DNA from: Anaerolineae bacterium
GTDB lineage: Bacteria > Chloroflexota > Anaerolineae > Epilineales > JAHCIE01
Direction: 5' to 3'
Length of the DNA stretch: 64,000 bases
Assembly (NCBI GenBank): GCA_026129165.1
Contig: JAHCIP010000001.1
Coordinates: 13,766 to 77,765 of the forward strand
The position numbers and the translations under genes were made by a program. Shown one piece after another: positions 3,711-63,708 of this stretch (the stretch's first letter is position 1; every line of letters starts with the position of its first letter). The notes beneath the pieces are model-generated. The model had not been told where the DNA came from. It did not search any database and saw only the letters and a list, made by a program, of their open reading frames with translations.

Positions 3711-3727
3711 GGGCGGTGGTGGATGAT

Positions 3728-3812
3728 GCGTGATACGTAATGCGTGAAGCGTGAGGCTGAGGGCTGAGGGCTGAAAGCTGATAGCTGATAGCTGACCGCT
3801 AATAGCTCTGAG
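3728..3812 (+). repeat. Degenerate heptanucleotide tandem repeat tract (GGCTGAG / AGCTGAT units) in the 110-bp spacer upstream of the ABC ATPase gene
   Basis: gtgaggctgagggctgagggctgaaagctgatagctgatagctgaccgctaatagctctgagg lies immediately 5' of the RBS (gaggagagagag) and ATG at 3822. Confidence 0.7.
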
Positions 3813-6736: not shown

Positions 6737-9582
6737 ACAGCACCTCGTTCACGACGCCGGCCCCAGGCTTTGCGCGCTTCATCGGCCAGCAGCAGTAGGG
6801 GCGTCCAGGCCAGCAGGAACAGCCAATGGCTGGCCGGGAAGGCGGCTGTGCCGACGAAGGCCTGGAAAGGCGGAGCATAGACGATCAGGACAATCAGGAC
6901 CATCTCGACAGCGATACCCAGCCATACCAGGCGGTTGCTGAACCAACTCAGACGGAAGACCGACAGTCGCTCGGTGCGCTGGGCGAACAGGTTGCCAATC
7001 TGGGTCATGACCACCGCCGCCAACGCCATGGCCGTCGCGGCGCGGTACAGGTCACCCTGGGCTGGCAGGTCCAACCACTGACCCCTGTAGCCGTTAGTCC
7101 AGTACTGGAAATAGAAGGCCGCCATGACGGCCAGGCTCTGCAAAGGACCGAGGAAGAGGTAAGCCCGCGCCAGCAGACCCGGCGTAATGACATGCTCGTG
7201 GAGGCTGCGCGGCGGGCGGTCCATCGTGCCGGGTTCGGGAACCTCCGCCCCCAGCGCCAGCGCCGGGGCCATATCCGTCCCCAGGTCCACCGCCAGCACG
7301 TGCATCACATTGAGCGCCAGCGGTATCCGCCCCCCACTCAGGACGAATAGGATAAACGGGACAGCTTCCGGGGTGTTGCTGGTAAAGATGTAGGTCGTAA
7401 ATTTCTTGATGTTGGCGTAGACGGCGCGGCCCTCTTCGATGGCGTTGACGATGGAGGCGAAGTTGTCGTCGGTCAGAATCATGTCCGCCGCCTCCTTCGC
7501 CACGTCCGTCCCTGCCTGACCCATCGCCACACCAATGTCCGCCTTCTTGAGGGCCGGCGCGTCGTTGACACCATCCCCTGTAACGGCGACGATGTGGCCG
7601 AGAGTCTGGAGCGCTGCCACCACGCGCAGCTTGTGCTCCGGGGCGACGCGGGCGAAGATGACCTCGTCGGTCATGGCAGCCTGCAGGGCGGCATCGTCCA
7701 GAGTGTCCAGGTCCGCGCCGGTGAGGATGCGCGGCTGGGGACCGCGCAGGATGCCGATGCGGCGGGCGATACTCTCCGCCGTCAGGCCATAGTCGCCCGT
7801 AATCATAATGATGCGGATACCCGCGCGGTGGCACTTCGCCACAGCCTCGCTCACTTCGGGGCGAGGCGGGTCCATCATCGCCGCCAGTCCCAGGAAAACC
7901 AACTCGGTCTCAACCGTCTCTGGAGTATACTGGGGCAGGCTGGCCGGGACGGCGCGCATCGCCAGGGCCAGGACACGCAGCCCCTGGCGGGCGTAGTCGT
8001 CATTGGCGGCCAGGATAGCCTGGCGCTGAGTGTCGTCGAGGGGGACAGCCTGACCCCGACGCCAGACCTGGCTGCACAGCGCGACAATCTCTTTCGGCGC
8101 GCCTTTGACATAGGCAATGAGGCCGCTCTCTTCGCCCGTCACCCGATGGAGGGTCGTCATGCGTTTGCGCCGCGACTCAAACGGTATCTCCCGCCAGCGG
8201 GGCAGCGTCCGCATCTCGGTGTCCAGGTCCAGCCCCCCCTTGGCCGCGACGACGCGCAACGCTGCCTCGGTCGGGTCGCCGAGGATGGTCCAGCGCGGCG
8301 TCTCAGCGTTGGGGGGCAGCAAGCGGGCGTTGTTGCATAGTCCAGCCGCCAGGAGGAGTTGGCGGAGGTCGAGGGAGGAGTCATTGTCCGACGGCGTGAC
8401 AGACGAGATCGCACCGTCGGGGGCGTAGCCCACGCCGCTGACGGTGTAGGCGGCGCCTGGCAGCCATAGGGCGCGGACAGTCATCTCGTTCTGGGTGAGG
8501 GTGCCCGTCTTGTCGGTACAGATGACCGTCGCACAGCCCAGCGTCTCGACGGCCGACAGGCGTTTAACCAGGGCATGACGGCGCGCCATACGCTGGACGC
8601 CCATCGCCAGGGCCAGGGTAACGGTAGGGAGCAGCCCTTCCGGGACAAAAGCGACAATCATACCCAGCGCGAAGATGAAGCTCTCGGCCAGCGTAACCCG
8701 CGCCAGAAGGACGGCGAGGCCAAAGAACACCAGGCCCATGACGACGGCGATGACTGTCACCTGCTTGGTCACGCGGCCTAGCTCGCGTTGCAGGGGGCTG
8801 GGTTCCTCGGCGACGCTCTGGGTAAAGTGGGCGATGCGGCCAAACTCGGTACGCATGCCCGTCGCCACAACGACCGCCTGGCCCGTGCCGGCCGCCACAG
8901 ATGTGCCGGCGAAGACCAGGTTGGGCATCTCCACGGTCGCCAGATCGGTGCGGGTCACGGCATCCGCCGTCTTACGCACGGCGTCGGCTTCGCCGCTGAG
9001 GGTAGACTGGTCCACCCGCAGTTCGGCAGCCTGGACGAGCCGCCCATCGGCCGCCACGCGGTCGCCCTCGGCCAGCAGCAGGAGGTCGCCTGGCACGATC
9101 TCCTCGGCCGGGAGGCGCTGCTCCTCGCCTTGCCGTACTATGCGGGCGTAGGGAGACAGCAGCCGTTTGAGGGCTTCGGTGGCCCGTTCGGCCTTGAACT
9201 CCTGCCAGAAGCTAAACGCGCCGTTGATGACATTAACCATCCAGATGGCGATGCCCAACTGGGGCAGTTGGGCGATGAAGGCCACCAGGCCGCCGGCCCA
9301 CAGCAGCCAGGCCATCAGATGGGTAAAGTTAGCCAGGAACTTGACCCACAGCGGGACGCCGTGAACCTCCTGGAGGGCATTCCGACCATAGCGGGTCAGG
9401 CGAGCCTGCGCCTCGGCAAGCGTCAGGCCCTGGGGTGAGGTCTCCAGGGCCTGGTAAACATCGGGTATAGCGCGGGATGCGATGGGCGGGTCAGACGACT
9501 GTGGGTCGGGCAGGGAGGCGCGGGCTGGACGGGGTTCAGTCTCTGGCGGGTGGAGGGGGACAACCACGCGCGGTCGGCTCAT
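6718..9582 (-). CDS. P2-type cation-transporting P-type ATPase
   Basis: 954 aa. Motifs ICTDKTGTLT (phosphorylation site), VPEGLLPTVTLALAMG (PEGL), TGDGVNDAPALKKADIGVAMG. N-terminal cation-ATPase-N-like region, 10 predicted TM helices. Start ATG overlaps the stop of the upstream esterase gene (ATGA). Confidence 0.9.
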   Translation of the reverse strand: MSRPRVVVPLHPPETEPRPARASLPDPQSSDPPIASRAIPDVYQALETSPQGLTLAEAQARLTRYGRNALQEVHGVPLWVKFLANFTHLMAWLLWAGGLVAFIAQLPQLGIAIWMVNVINGAFSFWQEFKAERATEALKRLLSPYARIVRQGEEQRLPAEEIVPGDLLLLAEGDRVAADGRLVQAAELRVDQSTLSGEADAVRKTADAVTRTDLATVEMPNLVFAGTSVAAGTGQAVVVATGMRTEFGRIAHFTQSVAEEPSPLQRELGRVTKQVTVIAVVMGLVFFGLAVLLARVTLAESFIFALGMIVAFVPEGLLPTVTLALAMGVQRMARRHALVKRLSAVETLGCATVICTDKTGTLTQNEMTVRALWLPGAAYTVSGVGYAPDGAISSVTPSDNDSSLDLRQLLLAAGLCNNARLLPPNAETPRWTILGDPTEAALRVVAAKGGLDLDTEMRTLPRWREIPFESRRKRMTTLHRVTGEESGLIAYVKGAPKEIVALCSQVWRRGQAVPLDDTQRQAILAANDDYARQGLRVLALAMRAVPASLPQYTPETVETELVFLGLAAMMDPPRPEVSEAVAKCHRAGIRIIMITGDYGLTAESIARRIGILRGPQPRILTGADLDTLDDAALQAAMTDEVIFARVAPEHKLRVVAALQTLGHIVAVTGDGVNDAPALKKADIGVAMGQAGTDVAKEAADMILTDDNFASIVNAIEEGRAVYANIKKFTTYIFTSNTPEAVPFILFVLSGGRIPLALNVMHVLAVDLGTDMAPALALGAEVPEPGTMDRPPRSLHEHVITPGLLARAYLFLGPLQSLAVMAAFYFQYWTNGYRGQWLDLPAQGDLYRAATAMALAAVVMTQIGNLFAQRTERLSVFRLSWFSNRLVWLGIAVEMVLIVLIVYAPPFQAFVGTAAFPASHWLFLLAWTPLLLLADEARKAWGRRRERGAVCDSSS

Positions 9583-39127: not shown

Positions 39128-40189
39128 ATGCTGCCCGTATTTGACGGCCACAACGACACCCTGCTCAACCTGTACCTGACCCAGCGCGGCGGGGGCCGCA
39201 GCTTCTTCGAGGCCAGCGACCGAGGCCACATTGACCTGCCCCGCGCCCGCGAGGGCGGCTTCGGCGGCGGCTTCTTCGCCTGCTTCACGCCGAACCCTCG
39301 TATGGCCGACATTACCGCCGATGAGGGTCTGATCAAGACCGCCACGGGTTTCGAGTTCCCGCTCGCCGCCCCCATTGACCTGGCCTACGCCCAGCGTACG
39401 ACGTTTGGCCTGGCGGCGCTGCTCTTCCGGCTGGAAGCCCAGTCCGACGGCCAACTCAAGGTGGTGCGGACGGCGGACGAACTGGAAGGGTGTCTGACGA
39501 ATGGTGTCGTGGCCGCCATCTTTCATATCGAGGGCGCGGACGCCATTGACACGGACCTGGACACCCTGGAGGTGCTCTACCAGGCCGGGCTGCGCTCGCT
39601 GGGCATCGTCTGGAGCCGGCCCACCGCCTTCGGCCACGGCGTCCCCTTCCGCTTCCCGTCGTCGCCCGACACCGGCCCCGGCCTGACCGATGCCGGCAAG
39701 GAACTCGTCCGCGCCTGCAATCGCCTGGGTATCATGGTGGACCTATCGCACCTCAACGAGCAGGGCTTCTGGGATGTCGCCGCCCTATCCGACGCGCCCC
39801 TGGTCGCCACCCACTCCAACGCCCACGCCCTGTGTCCCGTGACGCGCAACCTGACCGACAAGCAGCTTGACGCCATCCGCGACTCCGACGGTATGGTGGG
39901 CCTCAACTTCGCCGTGGGCTTCCTACGCGAGGACGGCCTCAACAACGCCGACACGCCGCTGGAGACTATGGTGCGCCACATTGACTACCTGGTGGAGCGC
40001 GTCGGCCTGGACCGCGTTGGCTTCGGCTCCGACTTCGACGGCGCCAGAGTGCCAGCCGACATCAAGGACGTGACGGGTCTACCGAAGCTGCTTGACGCCC
40101 TCCGCGCCGCCGGCTACGACGAGCCGAGCCTGCGCAAGTTGGCCTACGAGAACTGGCTGCGCGTCCTCCGCAAGACCTGGCGAGGGTGA
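39128..40189 (+). CDS. Membrane dipeptidase (peptidase M19, renal-dipeptidase family)
   Basis: MLPVFDGHNDTLL N-terminal motif. HIEGADAID, VDLSHLNEQGFWDV, THSNAHALCP, GFGSDFDG, all typical of M19 dipeptidases. Confidence 0.85.
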   Translation: MLPVFDGHNDTLLNLYLTQRGGGRSFFEASDRGHIDLPRAREGGFGGGFFACFTPNPRMADITADEGLIKTATGFEFPLAAPIDLAYAQRTTFGLAALLFRLEAQSDGQLKVVRTADELEGCLTNGVVAAIFHIEGADAIDTDLDTLEVLYQAGLRSLGIVWSRPTAFGHGVPFRFPSSPDTGPGLTDAGKELVRACNRLGIMVDLSHLNEQGFWDVAALSDAPLVATHSNAHALCPVTRNLTDKQLDAIRDSDGMVGLNFAVGFLREDGLNNADTPLETMVRHIDYLVERVGLDRVGFGSDFDGARVPADIKDVTGLPKLLDALRAAGYDEPSLRKLAYENWLRVLRKTWRG

Positions 40190-40440
40190 ACCTAACCCCC
40201 CGGCCCCCTTTCCTGCTAGGGAAGGGGGAGCAGCCCGGAGTTAACTCCCCTCCCTTTTTAGGGGAGGGGTTGGGGGAGGGGTTCAGCGCGGCCATACCTA
40301 ACCCTCCGACCCCCTTCCCTGGCAAGGAAGGGGGGCAGACCGTTCCGACCCCCCTCCCTTCGTAGGGGAGGGGTTGGGGGAGGGGTCCATCTCCACTCCA
40401 ATCAAGTAAGGCTACCCAAACGATGGGTAGCCTCAGCCGA
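40190..40440. repeat. Two tandem copies of a ~105-bp composite palindromic element, each with a C5TTYCC..GGAAGGGGG hairpin and a CCCCTCCC..GGGGAGGGG hairpin ending in GGGGAGGGGTTGGGGGAGGGG (G-quadruplex-capable)
   Basis: Unit 1 about 40191-40283, unit 2 about 40301-40388. Located between convergent gene ends (dipeptidase stop 40189; small minus-strand gene stop about 40560). Confidence 0.8.
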
Positions 40441-40559
40441 ATCTATTCAGTTTGAGAGCTGATTCCTGAGTACTGACGACCGACGACTGCTCCCCGGGCG
40501 GGCCTTCATCACCGTACACGACAGCGGGCATTTGGCGCATGGTCTTACCCGCCTGGGAC

Positions 40560-40872
40560 TTACCGACGCGCGTTGGTGATTGGCGCGTAGCGCGACCCAT
40601 CCGCTTCGACCGACAACTGGTACTTCCACGCACTGTACCGCTCCTGGGGACTGGGAACCGCGCGGTTCCCACTGCGCCCAACCGTGGCAGAGTACTGGTC
40701 GTGCTGGCGCGCCTTGAAGTCCAGGAAGCGGTCCCGGGCCGCCTGGTACGCGGCGCTCGGCTGCCAGGTATACGTTGGCCCATCCGCCTGGGCCGGCGAC
40801 GTCAATGCTGAGTGGTAGATAAGGGCCACGAGCGCGAACAGGATGGCGAAGAGGGTAGTCTTAGTCTTCATG
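40560..40872 (-). CDS. Small secreted hypothetical protein
   Basis: Starts MKTKTTLFAILFALVALIYHSALTSPAQA (signal peptide) at ATG 40872. The longer ORF-track start would read through a repeat element. Confidence 0.4.
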
Positions 40873-41065
40873 GTCAGGTCCTTTCTGGTGGTTGGTCCTT
40901 TGTCCTCGGTCTTCCGTCTTCCGCCTGCCCCCCGCAATGGGGGGGCCTCCGTCCTCTAGCGTGGCCCCATTGAACCACACCAACGCGCCAAAGTCCTACC
41001 CCTTTTGAGGAGAAAAAGGGGTATAATTGGGGGTATAAAGTTGTCCCAGGGGGTAGACCTGCCAG

Positions 41066-44065
41066 ATGTCTGATCTATCCTTCGGTCAGTGGCTCAAGCG
41101 GCGGCGGGCCGGGCTGGGGCTGACCCAGGCCGAACTGGCTGACGCGGTCGGCTACAGCCGCGAAATGATTCGCAAGCTCGAAGTGGACAGGCTGCGGCCC
41201 TCGAAGGCGCTAGCCGTGCGGCTGGCCGCAGTCCTCCAGCTCCCGCCCGAAGACCACGCCGCGTTTATCCGCTTCGCCCGCGACGAGGGCAGCGACCCGC
41301 CGCCTCCCCTGCCCACGCAGACCACCAGCGTCCCCCCACCCTCCACACTCGACGCTTCACGCTCCACCTCTGCTCCCCTCCCCCACAACCTGCCCATTCC
41401 TCCCACCCCCCTCGTCGGGCGCGAGGCAGAGACGCGACAGGTCGCCTCTCTCCTCCACCGTCCCGACGTGCGTCTCGTCACCCTCACCGGCCCCGGCGGC
41501 AGCGGCAAAACGCGCCTGGCGCTAGAAGTGGCGCATACGCTGACGAAAGACCGAGGACGGAAGACGGAAGACGAAGGGCGAAATACGAAATACGCATTAC
41601 GCACTACGGACGGCGTCTTCTTCGTCAACCTCGCGCCTATCACTGACCCCAGCCTGGTGATAGCGACGATAGCACAGGCGTTGGACGTGCGGGAGAGCGG
41701 GGGGCGTCCCCTACTGGAGAGCGTGAAGGACTACCTACGCGAGAAGGAGATGCTACTGCTGCTGGACAACTTCGAGCAGGTGGTCGAAGCGGCTCCTATC
41801 GTGGCCGACCTGCTGGCCTACGCGCCGGGTCTCAAATGTCTCGTTACCAGCCGTATCCCGCTGCACCTGCGCGGCGAGAAGGAGTTCCTCGTTGAACCGC
41901 TCCCGCTGCCAAGCCGGGATAGCCGACCGCTGACGGTAGACGGCCGCCAAGAAACGGATTACGCGGCGCGCATCACGCAATATGCCGCCGTTGCCCTGTT
42001 CATCCAGCGGGCGCAGGATGTGAAAGCCGACTTCCAGGTGACGAACGAGAACGCCCCCGCCGTGGCTGAAATCTGCCATCGGCTCGACGGCTTGCCCCTC
42101 GCCATTGAATTGGCGGCGGCGCGGGCGCGCGTCCTCACGCCGGAAGCCATGCTCCCCCGGCTCCAGCGCCGGCTGGCATTCCTGACCAGCGGCCCCGCCG
42201 ACTTACCGGCCCGTCAGCAGACGCTCCGCGCCACCATTGACTGGAGCTTTAGTCTGTTGACAGCAGGCGAGCAGGCTCTCTTTACCCGGCTGGCCGTCTT
42301 CCACGGCGGGTTCACCCTGGAAGCGGCCGAAGCGCTGTGCGGCGACGACGACGGAGGACGAAGGACGGAGGAAGAGAACTCTCGTCCGTCGTCCGTCCTC
42401 CATCTTCCGTCAGTCCTGGACGGTGTCGAATCGTTGGTCGCCCAGAGCCTGGTGCGGCGTGCCCTGCGTGGCAGCGCCGAGGCAGAAGCAGCCTCGCTGC
42501 CGTTCACCATGCTCGAAACGATCCGCGAGTATGCCCTGGACCGCTTTGCGGCCAGCCCAGAGGCTGGCATGGTCCGACAGAGACACGCCCAGTATTACCT
42601 TGGTCTGGTGGAGGAGGCGGAGCCTCAACTGATGGGGGCTGGGCTGACGGCCTGGTTGGGGCGGCTGGGCGCGGAGTGGGAGAATATCCGGGCGGCGGTG
42701 GGTTGGCTGCGAGACAGCGCCCAGCCAGAGGCCCTGCTCAGGCTCGTTGGCGCGTTACGCCGCTTCTGTGAACTTCAGGGACGCTCCAGCGAGGCGTTGG
42801 CCTGGCTGGAGGAGGGTTTGAACCAGGGCGGGGAGGTCGCGGCGGCGGTGCGGGCCAAGGCTCTCCATGTGGCGTCAAATCTGGCGCAGAACATGGGCGA
42901 CCTGGACGGCGCGGTGCGGTTGGGCGAGGCGAGTCTGGCCCTCCGCCGCGAGTTGGGCGACCAGCAGGGCATGGCGCGGACGCTCAACAACCTGGCTGTG
43001 ACGGCCTGGTCGCAGGGCAATTTCAGCCAGGCCCGCGAGTTACACGCGGCCAGCCTCGCCATCAAACGCGCGCTCAACGACCGGCTGGGCATGGCCTATT
43101 CCCTCAACAACCTGGGCCTGATTGCCACCGACCAGGACGACTACCCCACCGCGCGGGCCTTGCTAGAGGAGAGCCTGACCCTGCGGCGAGAATTGGGCGA
43201 CCAGCACGGCGTCGCCGTCTCCCTTCTCAACCTGGGCAATGTGGCCCGCCAGCAGGGTCAATTGGGGGAAGCCCGCGCCCTCTACGAGCAGAGCCTGGCG
43301 CAGTTACGCCGCCTGGGAGATCGGGCCAATGAGGCGCGGGTGCAGAGCGTGCTGGGTCTCACCCTGGCCGAGCAGGGTGACTACGCCGCCGCCTTCGCCC
43401 ATTTGCAGGCCAGTCTGGACCTGCGGCGGACGCTCGGCAATAAACGCGACATCACCGTGTCGCTTAACAATCTGGGGCAGGCCGCGCTCTATCAAGGCGA
43501 TGTGGCCTGGGCGCGGCTGGTGTTTGAGGACGCCCTGGGCCTGGCCCGCGAGGGCGGCGCGAAGATGGGGCAGGCCAACGCGCTGGTCGGGCTGGGCCAG
43601 GTGGCCCTGGCTGAGGGGCGGTGGGAAGACAGCCGGCGCTATCTGCTGGCGGGGCTGGACCTACAGCGCGAGCTGGGGGATCAGGGAGGGGTAGCGACAA
43701 CGCTGCTCGCCCTGGCGAAGCTCAATGCCCACGCTGGCGACATGGGGAACGCTCTTGCTAGGGCGCGCGAGAGCCTGGGCGAGTTGCACCGGCTGGGCCT
43801 TCAACTATTCCTGGCCGATGCCCTTGAAACCTTAGTCGGGCTGCTTGGGCGTGGCGATCCCGATGGGGCAACCCGCCTGGGCGGGGCAGCCGCCGCCTTG
43901 CGGGCGAGACTGGGGATTCCGCTGCCGCGAGGCGCACAAGGGGAGTGGGCGCGACGGCTGGACGAACTGAGGGGAGCGCTGGGGGGGAATCGTTTCGAGG
44001 CCCTGTACCAGACGGGCCACACGCTACCCCTCACTGAAGCCGTCGCGGAGGCGCTGGCGGATTGA
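41066..44065 (+). CDS. STAND-type regulator: N-terminal XRE-family HTH, NB-ARC/AAA ATPase module, C-terminal TPR array. Carries two in-frame insertions derived from a palindromic repeat family.
   Basis: 999 aa. HTH LGLTQAELADAVGYSREMIRKLE. Walker A LTGPGGSGKTRLA, Walker B LLLLDNFEQV, GLPLAIELAAA (NB-ARC GxP-like). About 12 TPR units (...LNNLA...YSLNNLG...LLNLG...). Low-complexity inserts TKDRGRKTEDEGRNTKYALRTTDG and DDDGGRRTEEENSRPSSVLHLPSVLDG. Confidence 0.8.
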   Translation: MSDLSFGQWLKRRRAGLGLTQAELADAVGYSREMIRKLEVDRLRPSKALAVRLAAVLQLPPEDHAAFIRFARDEGSDPPPPLPTQTTSVPPPSTLDASRSTSAPLPHNLPIPPTPLVGREAETRQVASLLHRPDVRLVTLTGPGGSGKTRLALEVAHTLTKDRGRKTEDEGRNTKYALRTTDGVFFVNLAPITDPSLVIATIAQALDVRESGGRPLLESVKDYLREKEMLLLLDNFEQVVEAAPIVADLLAYAPGLKCLVTSRIPLHLRGEKEFLVEPLPLPSRDSRPLTVDGRQETDYAARITQYAAVALFIQRAQDVKADFQVTNENAPAVAEICHRLDGLPLAIELAAARARVLTPEAMLPRLQRRLAFLTSGPADLPARQQTLRATIDWSFSLLTAGEQALFTRLAVFHGGFTLEAAEALCGDDDGGRRTEEENSRPSSVLHLPSVLDGVESLVAQSLVRRALRGSAEAEAASLPFTMLETIREYALDRFAASPEAGMVRQRHAQYYLGLVEEAEPQLMGAGLTAWLGRLGAEWENIRAAVGWLRDSAQPEALLRLVGALRRFCELQGRSSEALAWLEEGLNQGGEVAAAVRAKALHVASNLAQNMGDLDGAVRLGEASLALRRELGDQQGMARTLNNLAVTAWSQGNFSQARELHAASLAIKRALNDRLGMAYSLNNLGLIATDQDDYPTARALLEESLTLRRELGDQHGVAVSLLNLGNVARQQGQLGEARALYEQSLAQLRRLGDRANEARVQSVLGLTLAEQGDYAAAFAHLQASLDLRRTLGNKRDITVSLNNLGQAALYQGDVAWARLVFEDALGLAREGGAKMGQANALVGLGQVALAEGRWEDSRRYLLAGLDLQRELGDQGGVATTLLALAKLNAHAGDMGNALARARESLGELHRLGLQLFLADALETLVGLLGRGDPDGATRLGGAAAALRARLGIPLPRGAQGEWARRLDELRGALGGNRFEALYQTGHTLPLTEAVAEALAD

Positions 44066-47547: not shown

Positions 47548-47614
47548 GACCAAGGACGAAAGACCAAAGACCAACAAGGAGATATATTGGTCGTTGGTCC
47601 TTCGTCCTTGGTCC
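47548..47614. repeat. Imperfect ~26-bp inverted repeat hairpin of the GGACGAA(A/G)GACC family filling the glcD-stop to PRTase-start spacer
   Basis: gaccaaggacgaaagaccaaagaccaacaagg-agatatat-tggtcgttggtccttcgtccttggtcc. Related copies at 40876-40924, 41542-41613 and 42344-42423. Confidence 0.8.
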
Positions 47615-51779: not shown

Positions 51780-51885
51780 GATGGGGTGCATATACTATAG
51801 TCAGTACTAGTCAGTAGCCAGTCGTCAGTAGACACTAGCCAGTCGTCGGTAGTCGGTAGCCAGTCGTCGGTGAATAGTAGAAGGA
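51780..51885 (+). repeat. Tandem short repeats (TAGTCAGTA and AGCCAGTCGTCGGT units) in the 5' leader of the aldo/keto reductase gene
   Basis: tagtcagtactagtcagtagccagtcgtcagtagacactagccagtcgtcggtagtcggtagccagtcgtcggtg, 10-110 bp upstream of start 51891. Confidence 0.7.
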
Positions 51886-63562: not shown

Positions 63563-63585
63563 TCCAAACCTCCTGACGACGGACC

Positions 63586-63617
63586 ACTGACTACTGACTA
63601 CTGACTACTGACTACTG
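63586..63617 (-). repeat. Heptanucleotide tandem repeat (CTGACTA)x4.5 on plus strand = TAGTCAG in sense of the downstream minus-strand antiporter gene, in its 5' leader
   Basis: actgactactgactactgactactgactactga, 24-55 bp upstream of the antiporter start (63562). Confidence 0.8.
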
Positions 63618-63708
63618 AAATAGCGGAAGCCCCTGGCAGCAGACTACGCATGGACCAGGGGCTTCGCGGGCCGCATATTCAGTTGATGGAACTAACCAAC
63701 GCTCGGCG

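Follow-up and report, generated by a model that had tools for sequence, protein, structure and literature searches.

Two tandem hairpin-ended units in an Anaerolineae contig as probable non-autonomous copies of a cross-phylum, DUF559-linked repeat family

Several described kinds of bacterial repeat resemble the locus reported here, a pair of tandem units at 40190-40386 of a 64-kb stretch of an Anaerolineae bacterium contig (JAHCIP010000001.1; the whole stretch analysed is called the window). Each unit consists of two hairpin modules, A and B, and longer relatives carry a gene of the DUF559 family between such modules. Bacterial MITEs (miniature transposable elements with inverted repeats), such as Correia, ERIC and Nezha, share with the units a length below 120 nt, the absence of coding sequence and imperfect terminal inverted repeats (here ACC…GGT). 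They also share the fold-back structure, the many copies per genome in some hosts, and the existence of longer relatives that have a gene inside the same ends (A–DUF559–B in two loci, L128 and L131). Unlike MITEs, the window family showed no detected target-site duplication, the internal gene of its long form encodes a DUF559/Vsr-like nuclease and not a recognised transposase, and its ends are near-identical over more than 10 phyla. Rickettsia palindromic elements (RPEs; PMC10969869) are similar in being palindromes that survive in-frame in genes, with the encoded peptide in a tolerated loop or linker. The window family differs from them in its unrelated sequence, in being much shorter than the ~150-bp RPEs, in its occurrence beyond a single genus and in its linkage to a nuclease gene.

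Repetitive extragenic palindromic (REP) sequences, their doublets (REPINs) and the associated tyrosine transposases (RAYTs) also offer a close parallel, with single or inverted-doublet hairpin modules that are mostly intergenic, often at 3' ends, and with a gene bracketed by its own repeats. The bracketed gene of the window family is DUF559 (PF04480) instead of an HUH Y1 transposase, and the GTAG/CGTC tag is absent. DUF559 is homologous to the catalytic domain of EDxHD/Vsr-like homing endonucleases such as I-Bth0305I, with the E, D, H and D residues kept (PMC3384342; partial text of PMC3239194). Known EDxHD members reside within group I introns or inteins and each home to a single site, whereas the DUF559 genes found here are free-standing genes with hairpin inverted repeats as their borders, and dispersed derivatives without an open reading frame (ORF) accompany them. 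Because the window holds no nuclease ORF, its units could at most be derivatives or targets of EDxHD-like elements. Finally, the units contain a sequence like canonical G-quadruplex (G4) motifs, with four runs of at least four G, loops of 1, 2 and 1 nt and a fold that is competitive in silico. Unlike such motifs it is embedded in a palindrome with C-rich partners in cis, and it is kept in 9 of 67 modules of the family.

Judged from sequence comparison, the window probably holds two non-autonomous, MITE-like copies of a small, hairpin-ended and DUF559-linked family with cross-phylum distribution, whose mobility we infer. As a kind of element, miniature palindromic mobile repeats are already known. 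What appears to be undescribed is the family itself, with its spread across phyla, its in-frame residence and its association with DUF559; no published description of the repeats or of the DUF559 link was found, in a literature coverage that was incomplete and gives absence of evidence only.

The initial annotation, made from the sequence alone, had described a tandem composite of two hairpins and a G4 motif between convergent genes, and this anatomy proved to be real. Tandem Repeats Finder reported 40190-40386 with a period of 104, 1.9 copies, 81% matches and a score of 275, and the unit limits were refined to 40190-40282 (93 nt) and 40296-40386 (91 nt), 13 nt apart. From 5' to 3' each unit is built of a C-rich tail, hairpin A, a spacer of 15-18 nt, hairpin B and a G tail. 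In both, hairpin A has the layout CCCCCTTYCC / loop / GGRAAGGGGG, hairpin B has the layout CCCCTCCC / 6-nt loop / GGGGAGGGG, and the G-rich tail GGGGAGGGGTTGGGGGAGGGGT closes the unit. No ORF of its own was found within either unit. The parts are as follows.

40190-40282, plus strand: unit 1, an ORF-less A+B doublet of 93 nt that starts with ACC and ends with GGT
40190-40203, plus strand: C-rich 5' tail of unit 1, ACCTAACCCCCCGG; imperfect pairing with the 3' G tail is possible and would form an outer stem, P1
40204-40228, plus strand: hairpin A of unit 1, CCCCCTTTCCT / GCT / AGGGAAGGGGG, with arms 40204-40214 and 40218-40228 (11 nt, 91% complementary)
40229-40246, plus strand: spacer between the modules of unit 1; the position of the DUF559 ORF in full-length relatives, e.g. 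L128 and L131
40247-40269, plus strand: hairpin B of unit 1, CCCCTCCC / TTTTTA / GGGGAGGGG, with arms 40247-40254 and 40261-40269
40270-40282, plus strand: G tail of unit 1, TTGGGGGAGGGGT; joined to hairpin B's 3' arm, it makes the 21-mer G4 motif at 40261-40281
40283-40295, plus strand: inter-unit spacer of 13 nt, TCAGCGCGGCCAT; compare the 9-nt spacer between the tandem units of L124
40296-40386, plus strand: unit 2, an ORF-less A+B doublet of 91 nt
40296-40309, plus strand: C tail of unit 2
40310-40335, plus strand: hairpin A of unit 2, with arms at about 40310-40320 and 40325-40335
40336-40350, plus strand: spacer of unit 2
40351-40373, plus strand: hairpin B of unit 2, with arms 40351-40358 and 40365-40373
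40374-40386, plus strand: G tail of unit 2

The unit ends are terminal inverted repeats, the 5' ACCTAACCCCCC pairing with GGGGGAGGGGT at the 3' end with one internal mismatch, and relatives carry perfect versions (ACCTAACCCCC/GGGGGTTAGGT and ACCTCACCCC/GGGGTGAGGT). The modelled DNA fold of unit 1 shows a three-way junction, and its 5' end recurs in other phyla. The 21-mer GGGGAGGGGTTGGGGGAGGGG is exact in both units (40261-40281 and 40365-40385) and had no match elsewhere in the window with up to 3 mismatches permitted; two matches were obtained in 0 of 100 shuffles. The placement between convergent genes was also confirmed, with a dipeptidase gene on the plus strand ending at 40189 and a small ORF on the minus strand ending at 40560. 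As had been stated, the locus is not a clustered regularly interspaced short palindromic repeat (CRISPR) array, since only two 92-nt units with a 13-nt gap are present in place of at least three short repeats with unique spacers of similar length.

The exact 21-mer was searched for in a 596-Gb collection with one genome per species and was found at no fewer than 119 loci in about 14 or more phyla. The hosts belong to Alpha-, Beta- and Gammaproteobacteria, Desulfobacterota, Planctomycetota, Chloroflexota, Cyanobacteriota, Bacteroidota, Gemmatimonadota, Acidobacteriota, Armatimonadota, Spirochaetota, Latescibacterota and Patescibacteria, and include cultured isolates of Novosphingobium, Hymenobacter, Neolewinella, Prevotella and Chlorogloeopsis. 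The 21-mer was also present on seven IMG/VR viral contigs. BLAST against plasmids gave one match only, in an unannotated Calothrix sequence, because the low-complexity filter strips most of the query.

The surroundings of the 21-mer were conserved as well. Its partner arm in hairpin B, CT-CCCCTCCCC, lay 3-9 nt upstream in 115 of the ~125 distinct instances listed, with loops that vary and are often self-complementary and with arm variants that are mostly C-to-T. The basic module runs from a pyrimidine arm through a loop into a purine arm and closes with a G-rich tail whose last letters are GGT; read on the opposite strand, it is a C-rich tail with ACC at its start, followed by the hairpin. Modules occur alone, in small clusters or in inverted pairs whose tails point outward; such a pair can form a three-way junction or one long hairpin. 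The composite of the window type joins a 'ACCTAACCCCCCRG-CCCCCTTCCC-loop-GGGAAGGGGGAG' module to hairpin B and its tail, and was found with almost no base changes in Planctomycetota, Cyanobacteriota and Chloroflexota, where the spacer measures 0-45 nt. Each of the 36 distinct doublets starts with (A)ACC and ends with GGT, while loops and spacers are variable. Several loci had 3-6 copies per 8 kb. The tail of module B was also seen as a 33-nt tandem array of three copies in a Chloroflexi metagenome-assembled genome (L104, 3170-3260), and, in Prevotella jejuni and Neolewinella lacunae (L012/L026/L061; L056/L087/L094), inside longer repeats that are specific to the genome and have ~90 nt of upstream flank in common.

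The family is associated with DUF559 genes, and this was found statistically from both sides. Starting from the motif, longer elements with modules 0.6-4 kb apart were searched for among the 21-mer loci listed. No transposase was found between such modules; DUF559 cassettes were found instead. Of the 119 loci selected by the motif among the matches listed, 7 had a DUF559 ORF of ~110 amino acids immediately between the modules or next to them; they belong to Rhodobacter, Longimicrobiaceae, Prevotella, Anaerolineae, an alphaproteobacterium, Gracilibacteria and Chloroflexia. The ORF beside the modules matched Pfam DUF559 (PF04480) with E-values of 3e-33 and 3e-30. Starting from the protein, 59 metagenome loci were picked only by similarity to one DUF559 protein and were scanned with a strict hairpin detector (a perfect pyrimidine/purine stem of at least 7 bp). 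A strict hairpin lay within 200 nt of the DUF559 ORF in 30 of the 49 loci with both flanks, and further away in the same loci 3 strict hairpins were found in 85.7 kb, or 0.035 per kb. The upstream and downstream flanks of the DUF559 genes are inverted repeats of each other, with a median local-alignment score of 35 versus 17.5 after shuffling.

The closest DUF559 homologues bear the module types of the window itself, and both A–ORF–B elements and ORF-less A+B doublets exist. The simple A–ORF–B form is found in L128 and L131, and in L115, L125 and L127 A+B units flank the DUF559 ORF on both sides. L124 also has A+B units on both sides of the ORF, and two of them stand in tandem 9 nt apart just upstream of it, which is the arrangement of the window. 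Three loci (L037, L050, L076) have a ccg–DUF559–cgg arrangement. Where the DUF559 gene is more distantly related, its flanks carry other versions, such as CCCCTCTCC/GGAGAGGGG together with GGGGTGAGGT tails, or CCCCCTAAAGGGGG. The sequence of hairpin and tail differs by DUF559 subgroup, and in each version the arms, and the outer tails, stay complementary.

Some individual DUF559 loci had features of their own. In L115, L125 and L133 the G tail (…GGAGAGGT / …ATAGGAGGT) lies 5-8 nt ahead of the nuclease ATG and is Shine-Dalgarno-like, the opposite end (ACCTCC-like) resembles an anti-Shine-Dalgarno sequence, and the downstream A module provides the stop codon of the ORF (ACC-TAA or CCC-TAG). Whole DUF559 cassettes with their end modules have no intervening stop codon in L050 (~1790-2270) and L037 (~780-1230). 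The Prevotella cassette lies at the 3' end of a phosphoglycerate-mutase-like ORF, and the Longimicrobiaceae cassette between two genes for subunits of the xanthine-dehydrogenase family. The module-adjacent DUF559 ORF of Gracilibacteria (L097, 2512-2832) has in-frame TGA codons. Such codons are expected if TGA is read as glycine in this lineage, and the ORF may therefore be intact.

The DUF559 profile matched PDB entry 3hrl with an E-value of 5e-32 and, with an E-value of 2e-5, the I-Bth0305I homing endonuclease in its catalytic domain (3r3p), and the E-D-H-D residues are conserved in DUF559. NCBIfam returned the generic DUF559 name only, and PADLOC gave weak matches only. DUF559 has been grouped with Vsr and the EDxHD homing endonucleases (PMC3424549, PMC3384342, PMC9403480), and the genes that have invertible inverted repeats on their flanks were independently reported to be enriched in DUF559 genes, with an odds ratio of 14 (PMC9881135).

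Copies of the element were also found inside genes. The 21-mer is free of stop codons in all six frames and many matches lie in long ORFs; because the element is stop-poor, a position inside an ORF is over-called by crude ORF-based gene calling, and the evidence was limited to cases backed by PDB or Pfam alignment. Alignment of the Hymenobacter lucidus methylmalonyl-CoA mutase with PDB 1req_A gave two blocks, and the ~38 residues that the mutase has in excess fall precisely on the element, which is an A-like + B doublet read antisense. Among 120 Hymenobacter orthologues of this mutase, ~70 have a short empty linker (…AARSG-xx-NLL…) and ~45 have inserts of 10-50 residues at the same point, so that presence and absence of the insertion were observed between related species. 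The inserts belong to at least two unrelated palindromic families. In DnaE the match to the HHH_6 domain breaks off at the element, in a CHAT-domain protein the domain match spans it, and in a PBP (L025) the insert lies in an unaligned inter-domain region, which is suggestive only. The copies in genes occur in both orientations, and their residence there indicates insertion. The interdomain linker of the mutase after …AARSG (P0121-P0240) is a hot spot, with doublets of the GC type and an unrelated AT-rich palindromic family that reads NEELRMKNEEL…NSSFLIPHSSF.

In the mechanism that we propose, the ~110-amino-acid DUF559 nuclease gene of a full element would be enclosed by two modules, one per end and inverted relative to each other, and the doublet of the window type would represent the two ends, just 15-18 nt apart. 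The DUF559 nuclease, acting in trans, would move or copy the elements. This may proceed through a break in the target followed by repair-mediated copying, or through cleavage of an extruded hairpin or of a T:G-mismatched stem. Alternatively, the nuclease gene might home into pre-existing doublets. The copies in the window would then be a near-neutral insertion, at rest in the first tolerated position past the dipeptidase stop codon, and the convergent intergenic region would serve as an insertion-tolerant setting.

Several observations weigh against this interpretation. No DUF559 gene or remnant was found within the 64-kb window, where the element occupies a single site with two adjacent copies, and the strict criterion detected no hairpin in about 40% of the DUF559 loci. 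The 36 doublets had no consistent target-site duplication, CCAT being present on both sides in unit 2 only, and the DNA alignment of filled and empty mutase genes showed no clean target-site duplication. The lack of such duplication makes classical DDE-type transposition unlikely and is compatible with break-and-copy or with hairpin-directed cleavage. Synteny with L120, the nearest relative of the window locus, is lost past the dipeptidase gene, and L120 gives no empty site for the insertion. In addition, gene calling in the loci was crude, and the association with DUF559 leaves mobilisation undistinguished from mere targeting or hitch-hiking.

A broader proposal is put forward more tentatively, as a possibility. 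DUF559 proteins might be the nucleases of an unrecognised hairpin-ended selfish superfamily of more than 10 phyla, whose ORF-less, stop-poor doublets settle in-frame even in essential genes such as dnaE, and their substrate might be the extruded hairpin, the T:G-mismatched stem or the G-rich tail. If the link to DUF559 holds, it would give a role, selfish mobility, to a large uncharacterised prokaryotic protein family, and would define a MITE-like family with cross-phylum reach in which a Vsr-like nuclease replaces the transposase. It would further account for odd peptides that recur (PLPQPLP, GEGLGEG, PNPPAPFPAREGG…) and for the length polymorphisms of conserved enzymes, and many 'conserved G-quadruplex motifs' of bacterial intergenic regions may then be the ends of mobile repeats and not regulatory signals. 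For the window alone the consequence is modest, namely a structured insertion in the 3' region of the dipeptidase gene.

The units could instead be a functional G4 element, in which G4-A-G4-TT-G5-A-G4 would form a quadruplex in the DNA or in the dipeptidase transcript and would be kept for termination or pausing, fork stalling or protection of the mRNA 3' end. We consider this unlikely. The motif is indeed canonical, with loops of 1-2 nt, and the 21-mer has a G4Hunter score of 3.24. When the G-quadruplex term was included in ViennaRNA, the minimum-energy fold of each unit was a four-layer G4 plus hairpin A, at -66.5 versus -59.9 and -62.1 versus -58.6 kcal/mol for the all-hairpin fold, a lead of 3.5-6.6 kcal/mol. 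With this preference G4 folding of the single strand is plausible, and for window-type units the modelling makes it physically plausible. The exact 21-mer is moreover kept across phyla where loops and spacers vary, and in the window it lies on the sense strand directly past a stop codon between convergent genes. Yet among the 67 tail-bearing modules beside DUF559 genes, which were chosen via the neighbouring protein, the canonical motif (four runs of at least three G) is kept in those 9 only. The common tail of these modules, GGGGGAGAGGT, is one base off the window tail, and hairpin and tail are retained where the canonical G4 is lost. Each G run also has a complementary C run as its partner in cis. 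The G4 motif marks one variant of the ends and is not a family-wide feature.

Termination was looked for separately. The signature of a hairpin followed by a T run gave 0 sites on either strand of 39800-41100, and the units have no terminator consensus. Orientation relative to the upstream gene was unbiased, with ~32 copies in the same and 31 in the opposite direction by crude gene calls, and copies reside within coding sequences in both orientations. The suggestion of a bidirectional terminator in the initial annotation was therefore not supported, and neither was that of a G4 effect on replication forks or recombination, given the C-run partners in cis and the loss of the motif from most related modules. 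As a side effect, the units would likely leave the dipeptidase mRNA with a highly stable 3' terminus structured by hairpins or a G4. A triplex (H-DNA) reading of the mirror repeat was unnecessary for explaining the data and was set aside.

We regard it as quite improbable that the units are a conserved structured RNA, either a cis-acting 3'-UTR (untranslated region) element or a small RNA, with a three-way junction that would, for example, block 3' exonucleases. The plus-strand fold is more stable than that of shuffled sequences (z = -4.3), although the minus strand folds almost equally well. C-arm variants are mostly C-to-T, which preserves G·U pairs, and in several loci the outer stem is lengthened by copy-specific complementary flanks. 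The helices are nevertheless conserved in sequence and the loops variable, the reverse of typical functional RNAs, and the copies occur in both orientations and at in-frame coding positions. RNAalifold detected little covariation in 34 modules, in a MAFFT alignment that was poorly registered with the arms out of register. No Rfam match reached the gathering score, and below it only spurious matches to microRNA hairpins were obtained.

Mobilisation of REPs or REPINs by a RAYT, an IS200-like HUH tyrosine transposase, would make the doublets REPINs and the nuclease-gene layout a 'REPtron'. It would fit the short, GC-rich and usually intergenic palindromes, their inverted pairing with single modules as likely decayed remnants, and the one small gene bracketed by its own repeats. 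We find it very unlikely, as the bracketed gene is DUF559 (PF04480) and no Y1 transposase was found beside modules in the loci examined. The foot of the hairpin has no conserved GTAG/CGTC; feet and loops vary, and the conserved 5' dinucleotide is CT. Near-identity across phyla is also atypical of REPs, which are generally known to be lineage-specific (also the partial text of PMC3733652). Local duplication of a chance low-complexity G/C-rich palindrome, unrelated to elements elsewhere, would suit the presence of only two, adjacent copies in the window and the ability of slippage to create G/C-tract sequences, but it is effectively refuted by the spread of the 21-mer (more than 119 loci against less than one match expected in 596 Gb on a uniform calculation, besides the shuffles) and by the recurrence of the same ~90-nt composite, with its ends, hairpins A and B and module order, in unrelated phyla.

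The units lie next to the following features.

40187-40189, plus strand: TGA that terminates the M19 dipeptidase gene (39128-40189)
40409-40433, no strand assigned: separate perfect 10-bp hairpin, AGGCTACCCA aacga TGGGTAGCCT, with a 5-nt loop, outside the repeat family

As the dipeptidase TGA ends at 40189, unit 1 begins at the very next base, 40190. The dipeptidase was identified as M19 by Pfam with an E-value of 9e-99, and its best homologues are named Chloroflexota or Roseiflexaceae. The L120 dipeptidase is 94% identical and has the same last residue, and the DNA similarity stops at the stop codon. After that stop codon L120 has a SAM-I riboswitch (Rfam RF00162, 85 bits) at 7073-7218 that leads into another gene, and at the riboswitch position it is without the repeat, the small ORF and a regulator. 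L121 is likewise not syntenic with the window locus. The hairpin at 40409-40433 has no T run on either side and is possibly a real transcript end for one of the convergent genes. The small ORF at 40560-40871 on the minus strand has a signal-peptide-like N terminus (MKTKTTLFAILFALVALIYHSALTSPAQA…), has no Pfam match and is missing from L120. A tRNA scan found no tRNA genes in the window.

The window also contains other repeats. Intergenic tandem heptamer arrays are found at 3724-3807, 47548-47614, 51798-51880 and 63573-63618, and also at 40909-40923, with TGATGCG/GGCTGAG/GCTGATA, with GACCAAA and then its complement TTGGTCC, and with TAGTCAG and elsewhere its complement CTGACTA. L120 has an array of the GACGGAG type at ~7265-7345. 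These arrays resemble the short tandemly repeated heptamers of filamentous cyanobacteria. A 78-bp tandem repeat at 811-1026 lies in the ORF at 38-1450, with 2.2-2.8 copies and 83-94% matches, and it keeps the reading frame because its unit equals 26 codons.

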